This document shows positions 34,171 to 46,476 of a DNA stretch of 64,000 nt, piece by piece. Origin of the DNA: Eledone cirrhosa (taxonomy: Eukaryota). The notes under the pieces are model-generated. The model did not search any database and was not told the DNA's origin. It was given only the letters and a program-made list of their open reading frames with translations. The stretch lies in the NCBI GenBank assembly GCA_964016885.1, contig OZ024740.1, positions 336,040,001 through 336,104,000 on the forward strand. The letters are read 5' to 3'. Position 1 is the first letter of the stretch. Each line of letters opens with the position of its first letter. The translations under genes and the position numbers were made by a program.

Positions 34171-36081
34171 TTTGTCAGGTGTTGCAGCCTGTAGATAGCA
34201 TCAGCAATGGAATGACCAATGGAAACATTGTTTCTTTGGTCCGATTTGAAGAGTTTCAAGCGAATGAGGTCTGAAATCTTGTCGATCGATTGAAAAGATT
34301 GGACCCATGAATAACATACATTTACTCTCGTTATCATATCACAACTATTTCTATATTGGTGTAAAAATGATGTATTTCATAGCTATTACTCCTTGTCAGT
34401 ACATGCAGAGTTTCAGAGGTATGGGAAACAGTAGTGTCTGATTTTGTAAACAAACAATTTTCATTGGAAGTTTATTTTCATATTTTGCTGACTTAACCAG
34501 CTAGTTTGTGTGTATCTGTGCATGTGAGTATATATGGTGTGTGTATGTGTGTGGGCGTGCGTATTTCAAAATCTTTAATAACAATTTCGTTAAAATTAGC
34601 AATAGCTGTTTAATATAATATCTCATATATTCAAATGCAATAAAGTAGCTAGAAATAATACACACTAGTATCAAACTACAGTCGTCCCCTCACCAAGTAA
34701 TGCCTCGATAGTTAATGTACGGAGTATGTTTCAGAGGCAAACATCACGGAATATAAATCCACCATACCGAGAATTCGATCAAGGCCCAATTCAGTTATCA
34801 CATGTAATCATTTAGATAGGTAAATAAGTGTAATTCACATCATTGTGAAAAGAACTTCTAGCAGATGAAATACTGAGTAATCGAAGCCCCTCTAGTAGAA
34901 TTATTGCCGCAACAGTAGAAAAATGTAATAAATATATTAATTCTACCCGCCAATATTTTGAATAGAAGGGGGAACCTTCATTTCTGCTTTGCATACGAAG
35001 AAATTCAAGCTACAGTACTCTCCTGGATACGTTCCTGGTGCAAACAGATTGAATAGCAGAGTCACCGCGGCCCCGGAAATACCCTGGAATCTCGTCACTC
35101 ATCTCCTAGCATTCTCAGTATGCCCTCTCTTTTTCTTCAACGGTCCTTTGCAGCGCACCCAACCCTTTTCTTCCTACCACTTCATTTTCCACTCCTTTCC
35201 TTCCTTCTCCCTCAAAAAGGAGTCGCTTCGAATATATAGGGACGAATCTTCTAAAAGAAAATGTATCCTGCTAGCAGTATGGCATAGTTACAGGCTTATA
35301 GATGTGCATTCAAAATTTGATGCGAATATTATATACTGCACCCCTATACTATATCCTATGATTATTACGTTAACCCCTTGAAATTACACCAAGTTACGTG
35401 ACATGTTTTTAGTACTGTGAATTATAGGCACGCCAATAGACTAATAGACAGAATTCCTACTTAATAGTCTAACACGGCTTCAAAACCACCATAGCATCTA
35501 CGTATTAAATCCAGTTGAGAAGGATCATATACTTATGAGAAATTTTTGTTTCTACCCTTGGATGCGTCGACCACAATTGCTTACTGAAATGGATGGGGCT
35601 GAACATTAGTAAACATCTATATCCATCGTGCATTTATCCACCATATTCTAGCTTCGGTTTACAAAGCATTTACTGTATATATGGCGATACACGCCAGTAA
35701 AACATGCTTCTCATGCAACATGTTTACTTTGTATTTTGTATTCACACCTTAGCTAACATTGATACAATGAGTAAGAAATAATTGGCTCGTTAACATTCTT
35801 GTATGGAATCCACAATCAAACCAAAACTTTTCCGTTTCAACCACGATGCATTCTTGTGTCAACCCTCTGCTCGTGTGTACTGACTCTGAGTGCGGCAGAA
35901 AATGTAGAACAATATAAGACTTGAGTGTATGTAGACATGCACAGACATTCACTCACACATATAGCAATAACAGAAATTTGGTCATAGTCGGATGAAACCT
36001 CATACGGTTAGGTAAAATTACACCGGTGGATAGAGAGAACGGGTAGATAGATACATTATTAGATAGATAGATAAATAGATA

Positions 36082-36612
36082 TATTTCTTTATTTGCCACA
36101 GGGGAGTACAAAAATGGGACATTACAAGACGTGACGGCGGGGGTTTTACTTAAAAATCATATAACTTTAACATTAATAAATAACAATAAACTATATATAA
36201 TAAAATAACAATTGAAATCCCAAATAGGAGGGAACGTTACTGGAGGGTTGTTTTACACCCCGTGGATAGAACAACCCTCAACACCAGGAACACGTTTTGT
36301 AGGTGTTCCTGTCTTCCCTCTGTTTATCTTCCTCAACCTACAGGTTTATATACAGAGAAGGCCCATTCACTCGGGCCATTTTCACCACATTCACCCACCT
36401 TTCAGTGAATTTACTGAGGTGTAGCACCTCTCTCTCCACTCTCACCTTCCTTCTGAAGTGGTACTTAAAGAAGGGGATAAGTTGTTGTCCGGAGAGAAAG
36501 GTGTTTGCCCTCAGTCCTTTTAACCTCGTCCACCATATTACCTCTTTCGCTATAGCAACCAGACAGAGGAAAACCGCCTCTCCTTCATTCTTAAATGAAG
36601 GCGGCGGGGTGA
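36082..36612 (-). mobile_element. Tx1-like LINE 3' fragment (subfamily 2) in (GATA)n
   Basis: Encodes the ORF2 C-terminus (..RWVNVVKMARVNGPSLY); highly similar to 44551-45075; 3' end GTGGCAAATAAAGAAATATATC. Confidence 0.85.
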
Positions 36613-36631
36613 AGAAAAGGATGGTTGCATT

Positions 36632-36715
<84 letters not shown>

Positions 36716-36727
36716 TTTCTTTTTTTT

Positions 36728-36765
<38 letters not shown>

Positions 36766-36766
<1 letters not shown>

Positions 36767-38120
36767 GTTTCTTTATTCGCTACGAGAGCGCAAAAGATGG
36801 GGACAAATACAAAAGGGGGGGGGGGGGGGTTACATATATAAAAAATCGAGTAAACAGGTAATAACAATTAAATACAAACAATCGATATCCTCAATAGGGA
36901 GGAGGCGTTAACAGGGGTTACACACACCCCCGAAAAAATGTGCAACCCTCCTCTTCAGGAGCACGAAGAGCGAGTGCTCCCTTCCTCTCTTCTTTCTCCC
37001 CTTCTTCAACCTACAGGCTTATACAGAGAGAAGGCCCATTCACTCGGGCCATTCTCGCCACTTTCACCCACCTTTCATAAAATTTGCTGGGGTACAGCAC
37101 CTCTCTCTCCATCCTGATTCTTCTGCCAAAATGATATTTCAAAAAAAGAACCAGTTGTTGGCCGGAGAGAAAGGTGTCTGACCTCAGCCCTTTCAATCTC
37201 GTCCACCATATAACCTCTTTCGCCATAGCCATAACACAGAGGAAGATCGCCTCTCCTTCGTTTTTGAAGGGGGGGGGGGTGTGGCGGTTTGATCGTGACA
37301 ATGGACTCGGTGGTCAACCGGATTAGTCCCACCCGTGGCAATAGTCGTTCTACATAGCCCCACAGGTCGGTAACGCCCGGGAAGTGTACGAATGCGTGCG
37401 CGGTTTCCTCGTCGCGCACGCATCTCGGACAGATCTGTTTCGAAGCGTCCCTGCCCGGGCACCTGTGTCTGTAGAGCTTGTCCCGAACAGGTAGAGCTCC
37501 TCGGTAGCACTGCCAAGCCAGGGACTTTTGGAAGTTGTCCATCGGTCCCGGGCCGAACGTCCTACCGAACAGACAGACTAGTTCGTCCTCCTCCATGCCC
37601 AGAGTTTCTCCGAGAGCGTCGTCGCACTTGCTGCGAACCAACCCTCTATAGAATGTCGAGGTAGAGTCTCTACTGATTGCCGAGTCCGCTTGCCCGAGGG
37701 CCGTGAGCGCCTTGGTACATTCAATGTGCCAGGCGCCCAGTTTTCTCGGTCTTTGCTTGACCCAGGATTGCAGCTCGGTGAGCGAGACGAGTCGTGGAAA
37801 GGCTCGCCTCACAAACGGGGACCACAGCGGTTGACCGGTGAGGAATACCTGCAGGTGCCGTAGATTTCGTGCATGTTTACGCATAGTCACCCACGCTATC
37901 CCCAGCCCTCCGTTAGAAGGGTGTTGACAGTAGATGGATCTTCTCACCAAAGGGGCCCGCTTCTTCCAGAGGAATTGGAAGAGCTCCATTTTGGTGAACG
38001 TTTTCGCTGGACAAGGCACGATGGTCAAGCGGTAGTAGATGACGGATGCTATATAAGCTCGACCTTTCAAGGATAGTTTGCACACTTCTGGGCGAGTGCA
38101 AACACCTTGGCCGTTACCTC

Positions 38121-38121
<1 letters not shown>
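36766..38121 (-). mobile_element. Tx1-like LINE, 5'-truncated (1.35 kb), in (GATA)n
   Basis: ORF2 C-terminal region (CQHPSNGGLG, LAWQCYRGALPVRDKL, CPRC..HAFVH); (GATA)n at both ends. Confidence 0.9.
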
Positions 38122-38177
<56 letters not shown>

Positions 38178-38389
38178 ATTTCAAGGGCACAAAAGAAGGG
38201 GACAAATACAAGGGGGGGGGTACACAAAAGAACGATTAAAAAACCAAATAACAAATATAAAATTAACAATAAAGTCCTCAATAGGGAGGAGGCGTTTTGG
38301 GGGGTCGCACACACCCCCTAAAAAGTGTGCAACCCTTCTCCTCAGAAGCACAGAGAGAGGGTACTCCCTTGTTCTTCCATCTTTTTCAC

Positions 38390-41300
38390 CTACAGGCTGA
38401 TATAGAGAGAAGGCCCATTCACATGGGCTGTTCTCGCCACTTTCACCCACCTTTCATAAAACAGGCTGGGGTGGAGCACCTCTCTCTCCATCCTGATCCT
38501 TCTTCCGAAATGATATCGGAAGAAAAGGATCAGTTGTTGGCCGGAGAGAAAGGTGTCCGACCTCAGCCCTTTCAAACGCGTCCACCATACAACCTCTTTC
38601 ACCATGGCTATTACGCACAGAAAAACCGCCTCTCCTTCATTTTTGAAGGGGGGGGGGCTTGATCGTTATAATGGACTCGTTGGTCAATCGGATAGGTCCC
38701 ACCAGTGACAGCAGTCGTTCGACATAGCCTCACAGATCGGCGACGCCCGGGCAGTGTACCAATGCATGCGCGACGGTTTCCTCGTCGCGCACGCATCTGG
38801 GACAGATCTTTTTCGAGGGGTCCCTACCCGGGCGCCCGTGTCTGTAGAGCTTTTCTCGAATGGGCAGAGCCCCTCGGTAGCACTGCCAGGCTAGGGACCT
38901 CTGGAAGTTGTCCATAGGTCCCGGGCTAAATGTCCTACCGAACAGGCTGGCCAGTTCGACTTCCTCCATGCCTAGGGCTTCTCCGAGGGCATCGTCGCAC
39001 CTGCTGCGCACCAGCCCTCTATAGAATGTCGAGGTGGAGTCTCCACTGATAGCCGAGTCCGCCTGCCAGAGGGCCGTGAGCGCCTGGGCACACTCTGTGT
39101 GCCAGGCGCCCAGTTTTCTCGCTCTTTGCTTGACCCAGGATTGCAGCTCGGTGAGTGAGACGAGTCTCGCAAAGGTTCGTCTCACCGGTTGACCGGTGAG
39201 GAATACCTGGAGGTGCCGTAGCCTTAATGCGTGTTTACGCATCATCAGCCACGGCATCCCCAGCCCTCCTTTAGAAGGGTGTTGACAGCAGATGGATCTC
39301 CTCACCAAAGGAGCCCGCTTCTTCCAAAGGAATTGGAAGAGTGCGCGCTCCATTTTGGTGAGCGTTTCCCTTGGGCAAGGCACGACGGTCAGGCGGTAGT
39401 AGATGACGGACGCTATATAAGTGTTCGCCACCTCCGCCCGACCTTCCAGGGATAGTTTTCACTCGGCCCACTTCTGGGTCAGTGAAAACACCCTGTTCAT
39501 TACCTGACCCCAGTTCTTCTCCACCTGGAGGTCTGGTCCGAACCAGACTCCGAGCAACTTTACCGGGCCCTCTGTCCATCATCCAACGACGCCATCGGAG
39601 GGCATCCATTTTCCCCTCCACGTGCAGAGTTACAAACCGATCGACTTGTCCCGGTTCACCTTAGCCCCTGTAAACCTTTCGTACTCCTCCAGTAAGGTGC
39701 CTATCGCCCCGATTTCCGAGGTGGTCGACACCATTACTGTTACGTCATCGGCGTAGGCCGACACGGCTTTCCGCAATCCCGGTTCCAAAGGGATACCCTA
39801 CAACAACTCCAACTTCCGCAGCAGTGGCTCGAGGGCCAGTACATACATAAGGGAGGAGAGAGGGCACCCCTGTCGGATGGACCGCGTGATTTCGAACGGC
39901 TCCGAGAGGTAGCCGTTCACCTTGACTCTAGAGCTGATGCGGCTGCTGTGCATGGCAGTGATCCAGCCCTTGAAAACGGGTCCGAAACCTGCCGCCGCTA
40001 CCACCGCATCCAGGTAACCATGGTCGACCATATCGAACTCCTTAAATTAATCCAAGTTGATCAGGACCCAACCAAAGCTGGATTTGTTCCCAACCCTCTC
40101 TATGATGTATCGCATAAGGTGGAGGTTGTCGTGGATGGACCTGGACGGGATAGCAAATGTCTGCGCATCTACCACCAGGTTTCCCACGACAAGCGCCAAC
40201 CTCTTTGCTAACACCTTGGCCAAAATCTTTAACTCTGCATTTAGCAGAGTTATGGGCCTGAAATTACTTATTTCGTCCTCCTTGTTCTCGTCCTTCCTCA
40301 CTAGCGAGACTACGCCCTTGGTCACAGGACAGGGAATTCTCCCATTCTGTTTCCAGTTGCAGTAGACCGCCACAAGGAGATCGGAGAACAAGTCCGGCAT
40401 AGCTAGATATATGGAAGACCATCGTGACCCGGGGATTTGCGTTTGCCGCATTGGCTCAGCAGCTGAAATCGGCCCCTAGCAGGACTTCGCCACCTCGTCC
40501 GAAAGACGCGGCAGGCCATCGAGATATGGACCGAAGTCCACATCCCCATCCGGCCCGCCTTCCCACCCGAACAATCGGGCAAAGTGCCTTTGAAAGGCCT
40601 CACACATCTGCTTAGGTTCAAGGATCACCCATCCATCCTGGTCTCGCAAAGACCGGATAGTGGATCTAATCCCACTTTTGGCTTCTGTCACGCGGGCCCA
40701 GCTAACAGCTTTGGTCCCCTCGTTTCCTAGTGCACGTATTTTTCTTCGGACAACGCAGCCTTCGTGTTTCGCGTCAAAGAACTGGCCCAAGGCCGTTCTC
40801 GACGCTAGCACTCTGGCCACGTCGCCGCTTCTAATTGCCTCTACTACACTATCTACCAACTCCCTTTCCTTCCTATTTCTATCTGAGGCTAGCTCCTTAC
40901 TAAATCCTATTGAAACTACTCTAATCTCTCTTTTGAGAGATCCCAACCACCAGCTGTTGACGATCGCTCCTGTCAACCGCTCCTTAACTAAAGTACTAAT
41001 CAGGTCCCTGTACACTTTACTTGCCGGTAAGGACAAGTTCAGTTTCCAGTAACCGGGTCCCTGTCTATGGGTTCTATCAAGGTTGACTAAGCAGGTCACT
41101 AATTTGTTATCCGAATAGCCAACCATGAGCATCTCTGGACAGCTTAAAAGGTCCCTATCCTTATTTCTAACTAGGATCATCTAGGTACGACCTAGATGAT
41201 CCGCTGTGGTTTGCCCAAGTCCAGGTTGGCGCAGTCGGATAATCTAGTCGATATCTATCGGCCAGGTCAAATCGGCCGATTAACCCCTTGAGGCTGTTAC

Positions 41301-41557
41301 ACCCCCTCTATCGGGACATGCCCCTACATAGTCCCAACGTGCATCCAGGATACCATTCCAGTCCCCCACTAAAAGCAAGGAGCGGGACGCCCCCAGAAAA
41401 GTCTCTAGACGTTGGAAGAAGTCCGGCCGCGCTGACCGAAAAGGGGCGTAGGCGGCGACCAGCCTAAAGGCTCCACCTTCACCACTGCCAACGTCTAAGA
41501 TCACCAGTCCACCCTCCGGGTCCAGGTGTACCGTCTGTTCATGGGGACCTTTATCAT
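38390..41557 (-). pseudogene. ORF2 (APE endonuclease, reverse transcriptase, C-terminal zinc-binding domain), disrupted
   Basis: LVAAYAP, LLVGDWNGIL, GYSDNKLV, GPGYWKLN, KSPGHDGLP, NFRPITLLNAELKILAK, RQGCPLS, AYADD (YADD codons at 39744-39755), CPRC..HALVHC; probable start MIKV at 41557 followed by a deletion in the APE N-terminus; frameshifts and stops. Confidence 0.92.
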
Positions 41558-41618
41558 TTTGAGGCGTGGAGAGTCATCCACTGTCTTATAATTTGGCCTT
41601 TCGGTTTGCACCGAAGGG

Positions 41619-43100
41619 TTACTGTTTATTATATTGAGCAGTTTTTTTTTTGTTTGTTGATGTAAGTGTACTGTAATGTTTTTTCTGTGACGCTGTTAGT
41701 GTTGTGTAATGAGGAGGGGTGCTTTGTATTGTGTTGGTTTCTTCTGTATGTGTTTGGTTTCTGTTAGTGATATGTTTCCTTTTTTTCCTTTTTACTGGGC
41801 GGAACGGCTTTCCTTCATCTTCGCTATGCTCCGATGTAAGGAGGTTTTCGTCCGTGTTCGGGGGTAGGGGGATATTTTGTGGTAGTGTTGAGTTGGTGTG
41901 TGTATTTGTGCTTGTTTTCTGTGTGTGTGTGGGGGCGGGGTGATTGTGATTTGTTTCGTGGTCTTTTGTTTTTGTTGTTGTTGTTGTGGTGGTGGTGATG
42001 GAGATGGTGTTGTTGGTTTTTGTTGTCGTTGTGGTGGTGGTGGTGGTGGTGGTGATGGTGGTGTATTTTGTTGTTTTTGTGGTGGTGGTGTTGGTTGTTT
42101 TTGTTGTTGTTGTGGTGTTTGTAGCAGTGGTTTTTTTGTTGTTAGTAGAGGGCAGGCAGTCCTCAGGTGACCTCTTCCAGCGCAGTGGTAACAAGAAGGC
42201 CTCGTGCCTTCCACCGTAATATTGATGAAAGTTCGACCATCCAGTAGTACTCGGTCGAGTATTCCGGCGATTCTCTCTGGTGTCATCTGTATGAGAACCT
42301 CCAGACTTTTTCCCCCGAACAGTCCACTGGTGGACTCAGCTGCTGATACTAGAATGACCTTTTCTAGGTCCGTGAATCCTGTCAGGACGGACCCGATGTC
42401 TACTTCTGGCATTGAGCTCCTCGTTCTTCTTCCCATATATGTGGGAAAGAAGGTGTATTGTGGTGAGACTATAGGTGCCACCGAGCATTTTCGACCCAGA
42501 ATTTGGTCCTTCATTCGGACCATAATGCTGGCATAAAGCTTTCCTCTTTCAATAAAGAGTATGTCCTTTATAATGTCTTTCAGAACCAGCTCAATTTGAC
42601 TTTCTGTCAATTGAGTTGGTTTTCTTGTTGCGTTGGATATAGTCCTGAAAGTTATAGTATTCCTATATGTCTGTTGACGTACTTCTTCTGGGGAGGTTAT
42701 CGTAAAAGAACCATCCTCCCCAAAAGATACGTATTTTCTGGCATTTAATAAGTTTTGCTTAGCGTTAGTAATGTCTATGGGTTTGTATACGATCGTTTTT
42801 TTTACTGTTTGGGCAAAAGAAATTTTGCTGTTTTGTTGTTTTCGTTTCGTTCATTGTTGTTTGTTGTTGCAATGTTGGTTTTATTAATTCGATTTGTTGT
42901 GGTATTTTTTTCCATGTTATCTTTTTCAAAATTTGGGTTTTCACTCAAATTAACAGACATTTTCACAGTGTTTTTTTTTCATTCGAGAGGAGGGGGTAGT
43001 TCAACAGTTTGAATTGTTGTTCCCTCTTTTTCGCTTTTTTTGTGGGCGTGGCGTTAGCTTGCAATATGGCTTCATCGTTTTTAACGATATCAACAAACAT
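41619..43100 (-). pseudogene. ORF1 (gag-like, CCHC zinc knuckle, T/P/Q-rich tail), frameshifted
   Basis: ITVEGTRPSCYHCAGRGHLRTACP (CX2CX4HX4C) in ORF 41792-42610; upstream ATG at 43100. Confidence 0.8.
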
Positions 43101-43297
43101 TTTAAATAAAAGATTTTTCACCCCAAAATGGGCGAAAATATATTTACCCAACGTCAACAGTCCCAGGCGAGGGGTTAGAGTCAACAATAATAACAAAATT
43201 CAAATAACACACTCATAAATAACATAGTAGTAATCCAAAATCGAAGAGCCGATGTGAAAGACGTCCACTATCAACGATAGATAGATAGATAGATTAT

Positions 43298-43347
<50 letters not shown>

Positions 43348-43351
<4 letters not shown>

Positions 43352-43610
43352 TATAGATAGATAGATATATTTCTTTATTAGCCACAGGGGCACAAAAGAA
43401 GGGGACAAATACAAAGGGGGAAGTTTACATACAATAAAAACGGCTGGGGTGCAGCACCTCTCGTTCCATCCTGATCCTTCTTCCGAAATGATATCGGAAG
43501 AAACGGACCAGTTGTTGGCCAGAGAGAAAGGTGCCTGACCTCAGTCCTTTCAGACGCGTCCACCATACAACCTCTTTCGCCATGGCTATTACGCACAGAA
43601 ACACCGCCTC
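43348..43610 (-). mobile_element. Tx1-like 3' fragment with internal deletion, in (GATA)n
   Basis: 3' terminal motif joined to ORF2 C-terminal sequence nearly identical to 44027-44199. Confidence 0.85.
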
Positions 43611-43625
43611 TAGATAGATAGATAT

Positions 43626-43672
<47 letters not shown>

Positions 43673-43692
43673 TATAGATAGATAGATAGATA

Positions 43693-44409
43693 TATTTCTT
43701 TTATTTGCCACTAGGGCATCAAAAGTGGGACAAGTACAAAGGGGGGAGTTTACACAAAAAGGCGTCCTCAATAAGGAGAAGGCAATAACAAAATATAAAA
43801 ATAAAATAAGATATAACAAAAAATAAAATTTTTAACAAAATCCTCAATAGAGAGGAGGCGCCTTGGGGGGTCGCACACACCCCCGAAAAAAGTGTGCAAC
43901 CCTTCTCCTCAGGAGCACAGAGAAGGGGTGCTCCCTTGGTCTTTCATCTTCCTCACCTATAGTCTGATGTAGAGTGAAGGCCCATTCACACGGGCCATTC
44001 TCGCCACTTTCACCCATCTTTCATAGAAACGGCTGGGGTGCAGCACCTCTCTCTCCATCCTGATCCTTCTTCCGAAATGATATCGGAAGAAACGGACCAG
44101 TTGTTGGCCAGAGAGAAAGGTGCCCGACCTCAGTCCTTTCAGACGCGTCCACCATACAACCTCTTTCGCCATGGCTATTACGCACAGAAACACCGCCTCT
44201 GCTTCATCTTTGAAGGGGGGAGGCGGCTTGATCATTACAATAGACTCGGTGGTCAACCGGATCGGTCCCACCCTTGACAGCAGTTGTTCGACATAGCCCC
44301 ACAGATCGGCTACGCCCGAGCAGTGTACTAATGCGTGTGCAACGGTTTCCTCGTCGCACACGCATCTGGGACAGATCTTTTTGGCGGGGTCCCTACCCGG
44401 GCGCCCGTG

Positions 44410-44410
<1 letters not shown>
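43693..44410 (-). mobile_element. Tx1-like 3' fragment in (GATA)n
   Basis: ORF 43957-44361 ([28 protein letters not shown]); (GATA)n at both ends. Confidence 0.9.
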
Positions 44411-44476
<66 letters not shown>

Positions 44477-44497
44477 CTTTCTTTTTTAGATTATTAC

Positions 44498-44550
<53 letters not shown>

Positions 44551-44552
<2 letters not shown>

Positions 44553-45487
44553 TCTTTATTTGCCACAGGGGCGCACAAAAATGGAACATTACAAGACGTG
44601 TTGGCGGGGCTTTACATAAAAATAACTTTAACATTAATAAATAACAATAAACTATATATAATAAAATAACAATTGAAATCCCCAATAGGGGGGGGGGACG
44701 TTACTACAGGGTTGTTTTAGACCCCGTTGATAGAACAACCCTCAACACCAGGAACACGTTTTGTAGGTGTTCCTGTCTTCCCTCTGTTTATCTTCCTCAA
44801 CCGACAAGTTTATTTACAGAGAAGGCCCATTCACTCGGGCCATTTTCGCCATATTCACCCACCTTTCAGTAAATTTACTGGGGTGTAGCACCTCTCTCTC
44901 CACTCTCACCTTCCTTCTGAAGTGATACTTAAAGAAGGGGATAAGTTGTTGTCCAGAAAGGAAGGTGTTTGCCCTCAGTCCTTTTAACCTCGTCTACTAT
45001 ATTACCTCTTTCACCATAGCCACCAGACAGAGGAAAACCGCCTCTCCTTCGTTCTTAAATGAAGGCGGCGGGGTGATCCTCACGATGGACTCGGCTGAAA
45101 ACTGGATGCGTCCCACACGTGACAGTAGTTATTCGACATAATTCCACGGGTCGGTCACCCCTAGGGAATGAACAATTGCGTGCAGAACGGTTTCGATGTC
45201 CTGCTCGTATCTTGGACAGGTCCTTTTGGCAGGATCTCTGCCAGGGCGTCCGTGCCTGTAGATTTTGTCTCGAACTGGTAGAGCTCCTCGGTAGCACTGC
45301 TAGGCGAGAGATCTCTGGAAGTTATTCATAGGCCCTGGACGGAAAGTCCTCCAGAACAGACTGGTCAGTTCGTCCTCCTCGATGCCTAGAGTTTCCTCGA
45401 GAACGTCGTCGCCGAAGTGGAGTCTCTGCTGATTGCCGTTTCCTCTTAGTAGAGGGCTGTGAGCGCCTGTAGGCACTCGAGGTGCCA
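44551..45487 (-). mobile_element. Tx1-like 3' fragment (subfamily 2) in (GATA)n
   Basis: LAXQCYRGALPVRDKIYRH-type coding; diverged from subfamily 1; followed by GATAGATAG. Confidence 0.88.
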
Positions 45488-45619
45488 GATAGATAGTTAG
45501 ATAGTTAGTTAGTGAAGAGAATGGTGAAATAATGGATTAAATGGTATAAATGGAAACTGTTTGATGTATATATAAATGTATATATGGATAAACGGTTGCC
45601 TGATGATTGGAAATGTGAT

Positions 45620-45765
45620 GAGGTGGATGGATGGATGGATGGATGGATGGATGGATGGATTGATGGGTGGATGGGTGGATGGATAGATGGGTGGATGGGT
45701 GGATGGATAGATGGGTGGATTGATAGTGAGAGCGACAGATGGACGGATGAATGAAGAATGGATGG
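45620..45765. repeat. (GATG)n imperfect microsatellite
   Basis: Direct observation. Confidence 0.85.
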
Positions 45766-46476
45766 TTGCATTGATGAGATCAGAGTTGAAGTATGTATAA
45801 AACTGCGCTGAATATAATATGATATACACACAGGAAAACCTATGGTAAATGTATGATTTTATGAGTTTCAATTTAGTTCCAAAGTAAAGTATTTATTGGT
45901 TTATTTATTTATTCACTTTAGTTTTAGAAATGTTTTCATAAAACAATATTATGTTTCCAACAAATTGGTAAAACATATAAATAAATAAAATATCATAATA
46001 ATGTTTATTATATAATAGTAGGAATTTTCTTATCGCTATGGGAAAGATAAAAACTTTCACTACCTTTTTACGGACTGTTAACATTGAGTGTACAAATACA
46101 ATGAGATGGTCGAACTACTTACAAACGCATTACAGTAATGAAATTTTGATGTAACTGCACAAATACAATGTAAATTTAAAAAGATATTAACCATGTAAAA
46201 AGAATATAGTTATAAAAATATTAAACTCCAAGTTTGTAATACAACTGTGGGGTGGGGTTGAGAGCAATAACTACTGATATTTCCATGTTGTATTGTTTAA
46301 TCATATTATTACACGTGCAATACGAGATGTGTATAAGTAAGAGTATATTAGTATGTATGTAAATAGTGGGATTTAAATAGATAAAGGTATTTGTAATATA
46401 TACATATATATATGTGTGTGTGTGAGAGTTGGATTATATTCCTCATACAGGCATATACACATGTACGCCCACACAT

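Follow-up and report, generated by a model that had tools for sequence, protein, structure and literature searches.

Tx1-like LINEs of Eledone cirrhosa inserted in GATA microsatellites and a derived subfamily in GACA repeats

Why do six copies of one kind of retrotransposon lie side by side, in one orientation, with the same tetranucleotide repeat between them? This question is raised by a stretch of 64,000 nucleotides (nt) from Eledone cirrhosa (contig OZ024740.1, positions 336,040,001 to 336,104,000), here called the window. Its minus strand carries, between 36.1 and 45.5 kb (36082-45488), six copies (A to F) of a long interspersed element (LINE) with an apurinic/apyrimidinic-type endonuclease (APE) and a reverse transcriptase (RT), and GATA tracts separate them. 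An earlier note, made from the letters of the window, had described these copies and had proposed a Tx1-like lineage specific for (GATA)n/(TATC)n. Targeting of the GATA repeat was confirmed in the present analysis, and a sister subfamily sited in TGTC repeats was found in addition. We put at roughly 80% the probability that the cluster consists of six independent Tx1-like insertions into (TATC)n/(GATA)n in one orientation, in which the APE would nick the GATA strand and RNA ending in the repeat would prime. We infer the endonuclease nicking, the RNA-DNA pairing and the role of an endonuclease hairpin from sequence.

All six copies were found to have TATC directly beyond the 3' end and to lack poly(A), as had been described. 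The statement that their 5' ends adjoin or lie near (GATA)n holds for five of them: B, C, D and E adjoin such a tract and A lies 22 bp away from one, whereas F adjoins a degenerate TAAC/TATC run. Runs of at least three GATA units occur 12 times in the window, all inside the cluster, and outside the elements GATA is limited to three two-unit runs, whereas (TA)n runs of five or more units number 143. The association of the LINEs with GATA is therefore not a matter of chance. It had also been remarked that none of the copies sits in (TA)n, which is correct for the window but not for the genome, where some copies lie in (TA)n with TATC-like interruptions.

GATA repeats as the insertion target

Three young subfamilies, termed Y, G and Z, keep an intact second open reading frame (ORF2) and are 83.6-88.5% identical. 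Termini of Y were counted genome-wide by exact pattern: 850 were found, with N-TATCTAT next in 698 of them, and reversed-pattern controls gave 0. This share exceeds the 20% of flanks in one repeat above which a target preference is recognised in a passage of PMC4494074 (papers are cited here by PMC number, and for the passages drawn on). The junctions inspected were without poly(A) and so do not show the poly(A)/T-tract pattern of mammalian-type L1. The 5' side was read in a position-ordered sample (the 20 loci that come first by position, with 21 copies whose 5' junction is readable), in which 17 copies were 5'-truncated, to variable extents. At least two TATC units were present within 25 nt of the 5' junction in 18 of the 21 copies and in 15 of the 17 truncated ones, and the background for this density, taken from the window, is 0.10-0.17%. 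An initial sample (30/30 3' tracts TATC; tracts at 19/20 longer copies) was set aside, since 33 bp of tract in its query had biased it.

The association was also observed from the side of the repeat. There are 17,144 starts of (TATC)5 in the genome, and 24 of the first 30 starts of (TATC)5 or longer tracts on one contig (C1) adjoin a family member. Family matches at these 30 tracts were in sense orientation in 35 of 36 cases, which supports the strand-specific insertion proposed earlier; several rows come from one cluster and are not fully independent. Target-site duplications of about 11-21 bp were observed at unique sites, for example 14 bp at L303, 13 bp plus 3 bp of microhomology at L283, 11-12 bp at L301 and 19-20 bp at L295, and the off-target Y copies (L283, L302 and L303) carry duplications without added TATC. 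(GATA)n/(TATC)n is confirmed as the true target and not merely a tail. Because the duplication of the target leaves the repeat on both sides of the insert, piles such as this cluster and a run of G copies on contig C3 can arise, and the suggestion that each insertion preserves the target for the next is supported.

It could be argued instead that the repeat is a tail (and a 5' head) encoded by the element, that insertion has no sequence preference and that the elements seed the microsatellites. The frequent contact between tract starts and elements is compatible with this, as is the observation that full-length 5' ends seemingly carry a few RNA-borne units. However, the truncated copies break at unrelated positions and yet show TATC at their 5' junctions, the off-target copies acquire no tail, and the flanks of G copies are long, imperfect, copy-specific and partly duplicated on both sides. 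We regard this explanation as already largely refuted and its probability as very small. Smaller still is the probability that a local duplication, tandem or segmental, gave rise to the cluster, or that the copies were passively retained in repeat-rich DNA. A and F are 92.4% alike, a 178-bp block of D and E is 97.8% identical, and unequal crossover may have contributed to some of the long G arrays (L214). Against these likenesses, most copy pairs in the cluster are 73-89% identical, E is identical to dispersed Y copies, 5' breakpoints differ between copies, and A is closer to an unlinked copy in L361 (95.2%) than to F. The last two observations imply that the pile is not a local duplication, and a duplication origin for the cluster is refuted. 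As for passive retention, there has been little time for such sorting, since copies more than 99% identical are already restricted to the target. The earlier note had named two outcomes that would count against its proposal, namely 5' flanks mostly without (GATA)n and a duplicated cluster with shared breakpoints, and neither was found.

Layout of the cluster and of the window

The copies lie on the minus strand and the tracts are given as GATA on the plus strand. Copy A (36082..36609) is 5'-truncated, retains the end of ORF2 and the 3' untranslated region (UTR) and belongs to an older subfamily shared with F; an imperfect GATA tract lies at its 3' end (36044..36081). It is separated from B by (GATA)13, (GA)n, a short AAGAAATATC-like stub and (GATA)9 (36632..36766). 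Copy B (36767..38120; 1,354 bp) is 5'-truncated and contains an open frame of 386 amino acids (aa) with a zf-RVT-like region. A single (GATA)14 (38121..38176) adjoins B at its 5' end and C at its 3' end. Copy C (38177..43275) is near full-length with 5' UTR, ORF1 and ORF2, where a CCHC knuckle was recognised in ORF1 and APE, RT and a zf-RVT-like region in ORF2, and its reading frames are broken by many stops and frameshifts. A (GATA)n tract with two interruptions (43276..43367) leads to copy D (43368..43611; 244 bp), in which the 178 bp at 97.8% identity to subfamily Y are fused to a 3' terminus that belongs to a different subfamily; this junction may be either an internal deletion or a chimera. 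A further (GATA)n (43612..43691) separates D from E (43692..44410), which is 100% identical over 717 bp to Y and is likely to be the newest insertion of the cluster. (GATA)16, a short AAAGAAAG stub and (GATA)13 (44411..44552) then lead to copy F (44553..45488; 936 bp), which is 5'-truncated.

The best pairwise blocks are 73-92% identical except for the D/E block, and the "at least two subfamilies" of the earlier note become about five. Its typical 3' motif, AATAAAGAAATATATC, was observed in exact form only in A and D and is absent from B, C, E and F; E has AATAAAAGAAATATATC, B has AATAAAGAAACC and F has AATAAAGATATC, and AATAAA is absent from the 3' end of C. The A-rich AAGAAATATC-like stubs within the GATA tracts (36715-36730 and 44476-44490) might represent a seventh and an eighth insertion, each truncated to an extreme degree. 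Three of the cluster tracts share a TAATAAT interruption, and the spacer 5' of copy A (36610-36637) resembles host sequence past copy F (45752-45780; gaaga..ggatggttgcattgat).

Outside the cluster, a lone older copy (4617..6440, minus strand) comprises the RT region and the 3' terminus, with the end of ORF2 missing. Its 3' flank is degenerate TATC/TC, but its 5' end is without TATC. A 485-bp tandem repeat occupies 7652-10903 (99% identical, 4.5 copies one way, then 2.2 reversed). The 1,070-nt arms of this array are 100% complementary and long (TA)n runs lie at both borders; either an artefact of assembly or a young foldback element that inserts into TA could account for it. Two 221-bp units with (TA)n, 82% alike, were found at 2265-2720. 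Elsewhere in the genome, L336 and L066 share identical non-family sequence just 5' of their TATC tract, which may belong to a different repeat with TATC at its end.

A sister subfamily in GACA repeats

Some copies with a 5' end like that of window copy C were found to have (TGTC)n flanks, and their terminus reads AAATAAACAGAAATTTGTC in place of AAATAAATAGAAATTTATC. Termini of this subfamily, G, number 252, with NN-GTCTGT next in 159 and NN-ATCTAT in 7; ATAGA-pattern termini number 634 in the genome, and all 30 loci checked have TCTAT within the next 60 nt. Host flanks were scored from -60 to -17, a range chosen to lie beyond possible RNA-borne repeat units. Flanks of full-length G copies were TGTC-dominated in 35 of 45 loci, TATC-dominated in 1 and tied in 9, the last 20 of these loci having been picked from the GTCTGT list. 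The corresponding flanks were TGTC-dominated in 0/20 and TATC-dominated in 17/20 for Y, and in 1/20 and 13/20 for Z. Imperfect G tracts show duplications of 11-18 bp, and the flanks are unlike between copies. Starts of (TGTC)5 tracts number 2,880 in the genome. ADAR editing was considered as the main source of TGTC and rejected, because the far host flanks are TGTC-rich on both sides. Nine G termini in one orientation, mostly 5.6 kb apart, were observed at G000:C3:358735002-358781063, and arrays of 2-4 termini occur likewise on C1 and C2.

A DNA tree of 44 copies with Y and Z (7 of 53 loci were left out as too short and 3 because a 5' end was missing) takes the form of a ladder in which Z, Y and the clade of window copy C, all in TATC, are followed by a poorly resolved mixed stage and then by G. 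An endonuclease hairpin that aligns to L1 T192-S202, and by which L1 probes its target DNA, changes along this ladder by two substitutions. The strict TATC copies have W-A-N-R/H (A in 6/7; WANHSGS in window copy C), the mixed copies W-T-N-H (T in 13/13) and 17 later copies on the TGTC side W-S-N-N. A complementary change from ATAGA to ACAGA in the 3' end of the element accompanies the passage from TATC to TGTC. In the predicted RNA fold ACAGA pairs with TCTGT, beside a GCC-N5-GGC-type stem-loop that is present in 12/12 common termini. Within the T-N-H stage, 5' flanks were TATC-dominated in 5 of 6 ATAGA copies (two represent one duplicated locus) and TGTC-dominated in 9 of 10 ACAGA copies. A target switch independent of the endonuclease was dropped, since the tree and the hairpins of the individual copies show an earlier A-to-T change. 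In the L1 endonuclease domain (L1-EN), grafting of the Tx1L loop altered the nicking profile (PMC1950540).

The 5' flanks of the T-N-H copies, which follow the RNA terminus under one and the same hairpin, agree with an explanation in which the endonuclease is relaxed and accepts any TRTC-like, flexible site while the RNA ends pick the target, so that a change from UAUC to UGUC together with ATAGA to ACAGA retargets the element. The predicted ACAGA-TCTGT pairing is in keeping with it, and pure repeat units beyond the duplication at full-length 5' ends (L191 and L228) suggest that repeats are carried by the RNA. Annealing of RNA to the target has been proposed for SART1 and R1Bm in the passages drawn on from PMC7265360 and raised for L1 in those from PMC1950540. 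On the other hand, the switch is a single evolutionary event, Y is TATC-specific though it has no ATAGA, and an ACAGA copy of a subfamily listed as 84%-divergent lies in pure TATC (L144). In the off-target Y copies, pairing extends over no more than 2-4 bases of the target, and the hairpin changes both before and after the switch. We consider this explanation unlikely, though it deserves attention; it is not exclusive of the endonuclease-based model. A combined course, in which the hairpin was relaxed by one residue, the terminal RNA repeat (UAUC or UGUC, paired with ATAGA or ACAGA) then chose between GATA and GACA, and the enzyme re-specialised later, is offered tentatively and at no better odds.

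Relatives, mechanism and meaning

Natural intact copies elsewhere in the 3.0-Gb genome are 5.6-5.7 kb long and contain two ORFs. In the L064 copy of subfamily Y (endonuclease domain at 3967-4686) ORF1 encodes 593 aa with one CCHC knuckle and the ORF2 frame has 1,153 aa; an intact G copy is present in L230. Of 150 endonuclease matches scored, 127 fall within an open frame of 1,153 aa. Exo_endo_phos and RVT_1 were found in ORF2 by Pfam, with zf-RVT below threshold, and the best PDB match is L1 ORF2p (E 2e-48, versus 3e-19 for R2). The two ORFs and the N-terminal APE and RT of ORF2 are as in L1-group APE-type elements without long terminal repeats (non-LTR). An AlphaFold2 (AF2) model of the endonuclease (46 sequences, predicted local distance difference test (pLDDT) 93.7) matched human L1-EN best (1vyb, E 3e-18). 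The CCHC motif of ORF1 is single; its Pfam match was weak in copy C and none was obtained for P0002, and an Atlas search led to zf-CCHC clusters at 0.92 and RBD_ZCCHC3 at 0.89.

Among named proteins the best match comes from Argonauta hians (67%, along part of the query), which points to an octopod as the likely host. Beyond it, the nearest named relatives are a coral protein named "TX1 149 kDa" and fish proteins with a ZCCHC3-type ORF1 (30-31%, 288-298 bits, residues 9-800; human L1 gave 168 bits in a different search). In a quick RT tree that contains no labelled Tx1L, Kibi or Keno and from which Caretta was dropped by a length filter, the family, Argonauta and relatives at 44-54% form a clade of their own (Shimodaira-Hasegawa-like approximate likelihood ratio test, SH-aLRT, 98) with weak deeper nodes, and the fish and coral Tx1-like proteins fall apart from it. 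ORF2 relatives at 42-46% identity occur in ENA/JGI assemblies in large clusters of up to 732 members that form a sister group (P0004-P0062); a metagenome scan for their flanks yielded none. In the four runs examined, family contigs at least 98% alike in part occur under several organisms. A more distant Tx1-like 3' end (55% to ORF2) was observed in L125 near 8643 (oriented), followed by TTGTCCTGTG/TA repeats that are either another target or a duplicated terminus.

Kibi and Koshi, LINEs of the Tx1 clade in teleost fish, are specific for (TC)n and (TTC)n (PMC4494074, PMC3812793). The family described here is likewise an APE-type LINE, probably of the Tx1 group, that inserts specifically into microsatellites, but its targets are (TATC)n and, in the derived subfamily, (TGTC)n, and it is therefore not classed with Kibi or Koshi; its RT forms a separate clade at about 33-36% identity to the fish Tx1-like proteins retrieved, none of which is a labelled Kibi or Koshi sequence. 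Crocodilian Tx1 families with (TTCC)n and (TTTC)n targets (PMC4494074) share with it the tetranucleotide unit, the pyrimidine-rich strand and probably the clade, and differ in the repeat unit; the family described here stands out by its young copies with intact ORF2 and its recent target switch. Waldo (ACAY) and Mino (AC) of the R1 clade, Dong (TAA) and Togen (TG) are also microsatellite-specific non-LTR elements (PMC3812793, PMC4640811); they belong to other clades and have other targets, and the present ORF2 is L1/Tx1-like. The endonuclease resembles those of human L1 ORF2p and Xenopus Tx1L in its fold, catalytic residues and T192-S202-equivalent hairpin. Unlike human L1, the family neither carries a poly(A) tail nor targets T tracts, and its ORF2 has about 1,145 aa; the hairpin loop has the length found in L1-EN and lacks the extended RDGH tip of Tx1L (PMC1950540). 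Active L1-Tx1 LINEs are also present in another octopod, Octopus vulgaris, with 13 recently active "L1-Tx1" families (PMC13282606); that library may hold relatives of the family, and targets are not discussed in the main text, where the word "target" is absent. The word "GATA" is absent from the main text of PMC4494074, the supplements that list Tx1 targets being outside this check, and the parts of PMC10294476 and PMC8869645 consulted hold nothing on GATA. No GATA- or GACA-specific LINE was found in the literature search, whose scope left out Repbase, Dfam and most subscription papers, so that absence from print is not established.

Under the mechanism that we propose, ORF2p would bind the GCC-N5-GGC stem-loop at the 3' end of its own RNA, and the endonuclease would nick the GATA strand, within TA|TC or C|TA as judged from the junctions. 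The freed 3' end would pair with a few UAUC bases at the end of the RNA, and a second nick some 11-21 nt away would duplicate 3-5 repeat units. Two targets would thus be left by each insertion, which would allow the piles to grow. The switch to TGTC likely proceeded via the hairpin, which would probe the minor groove, from A-N-R/H (TATC) through T-N-H (both) to S-N-N (TGTC), and the RNA end would have shifted from ATAGA...TATC to ACAGA...TGTC in the relaxed stage.

Several observations weigh against this reading. The junctions do not fix the nick position to one base, and 152 of the 850 Y termini lie outside the strict N-TATCTAT pattern. The 14 of these that were examined lie mostly in (TA)n with TATC-like interruptions, with a few at unique sites, and only 4 have two TATC units at the 5' side. 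Of the roughly 10 real 5' junctions among truncated G copies, no more than 4 carry TGTC (15 rows, 5 of which are alignment breaks or an N gap); the misses are older copies, at 97.3% or less, and may be due to later deletions. The groups differ at 26 endonuclease columns on the same branches, and the link between hairpin and target is therefore only a correlation along one lineage. Furthermore, single point mutants of L1-EN kept their specificity, and the flexibility of the loop seemingly mattered more than its sequence (PMC1950540).

The family is a new target variant among microsatellite-specific Tx1-like LINEs, and its recent, traceable switch between tetranucleotides adds to its interest. 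Gains and changes of LINE targets are usually compared between elements that are about 30% identical. In this family, two ORF2 proteins, both natural and intact, are 88.5% identical and belong with targets that differ by a single base, and the order of the changes can be read from fossil intermediates. The question of endonuclease versus RNA thereby becomes testable with a few swaps, and it bears on the building of targeted insertion tools. The 24 of 30 tracts sampled suggest that long GATA microsatellites in this genome are mostly retrotransposon junctions, which is relevant to repeat annotation and to markers based on them. If the hairpin was relaxed and the RNA made the choice, target choice would be partly programmable by RNA, and most of the long GATA microsatellites here would be junctions that the element has kept and multiplied.

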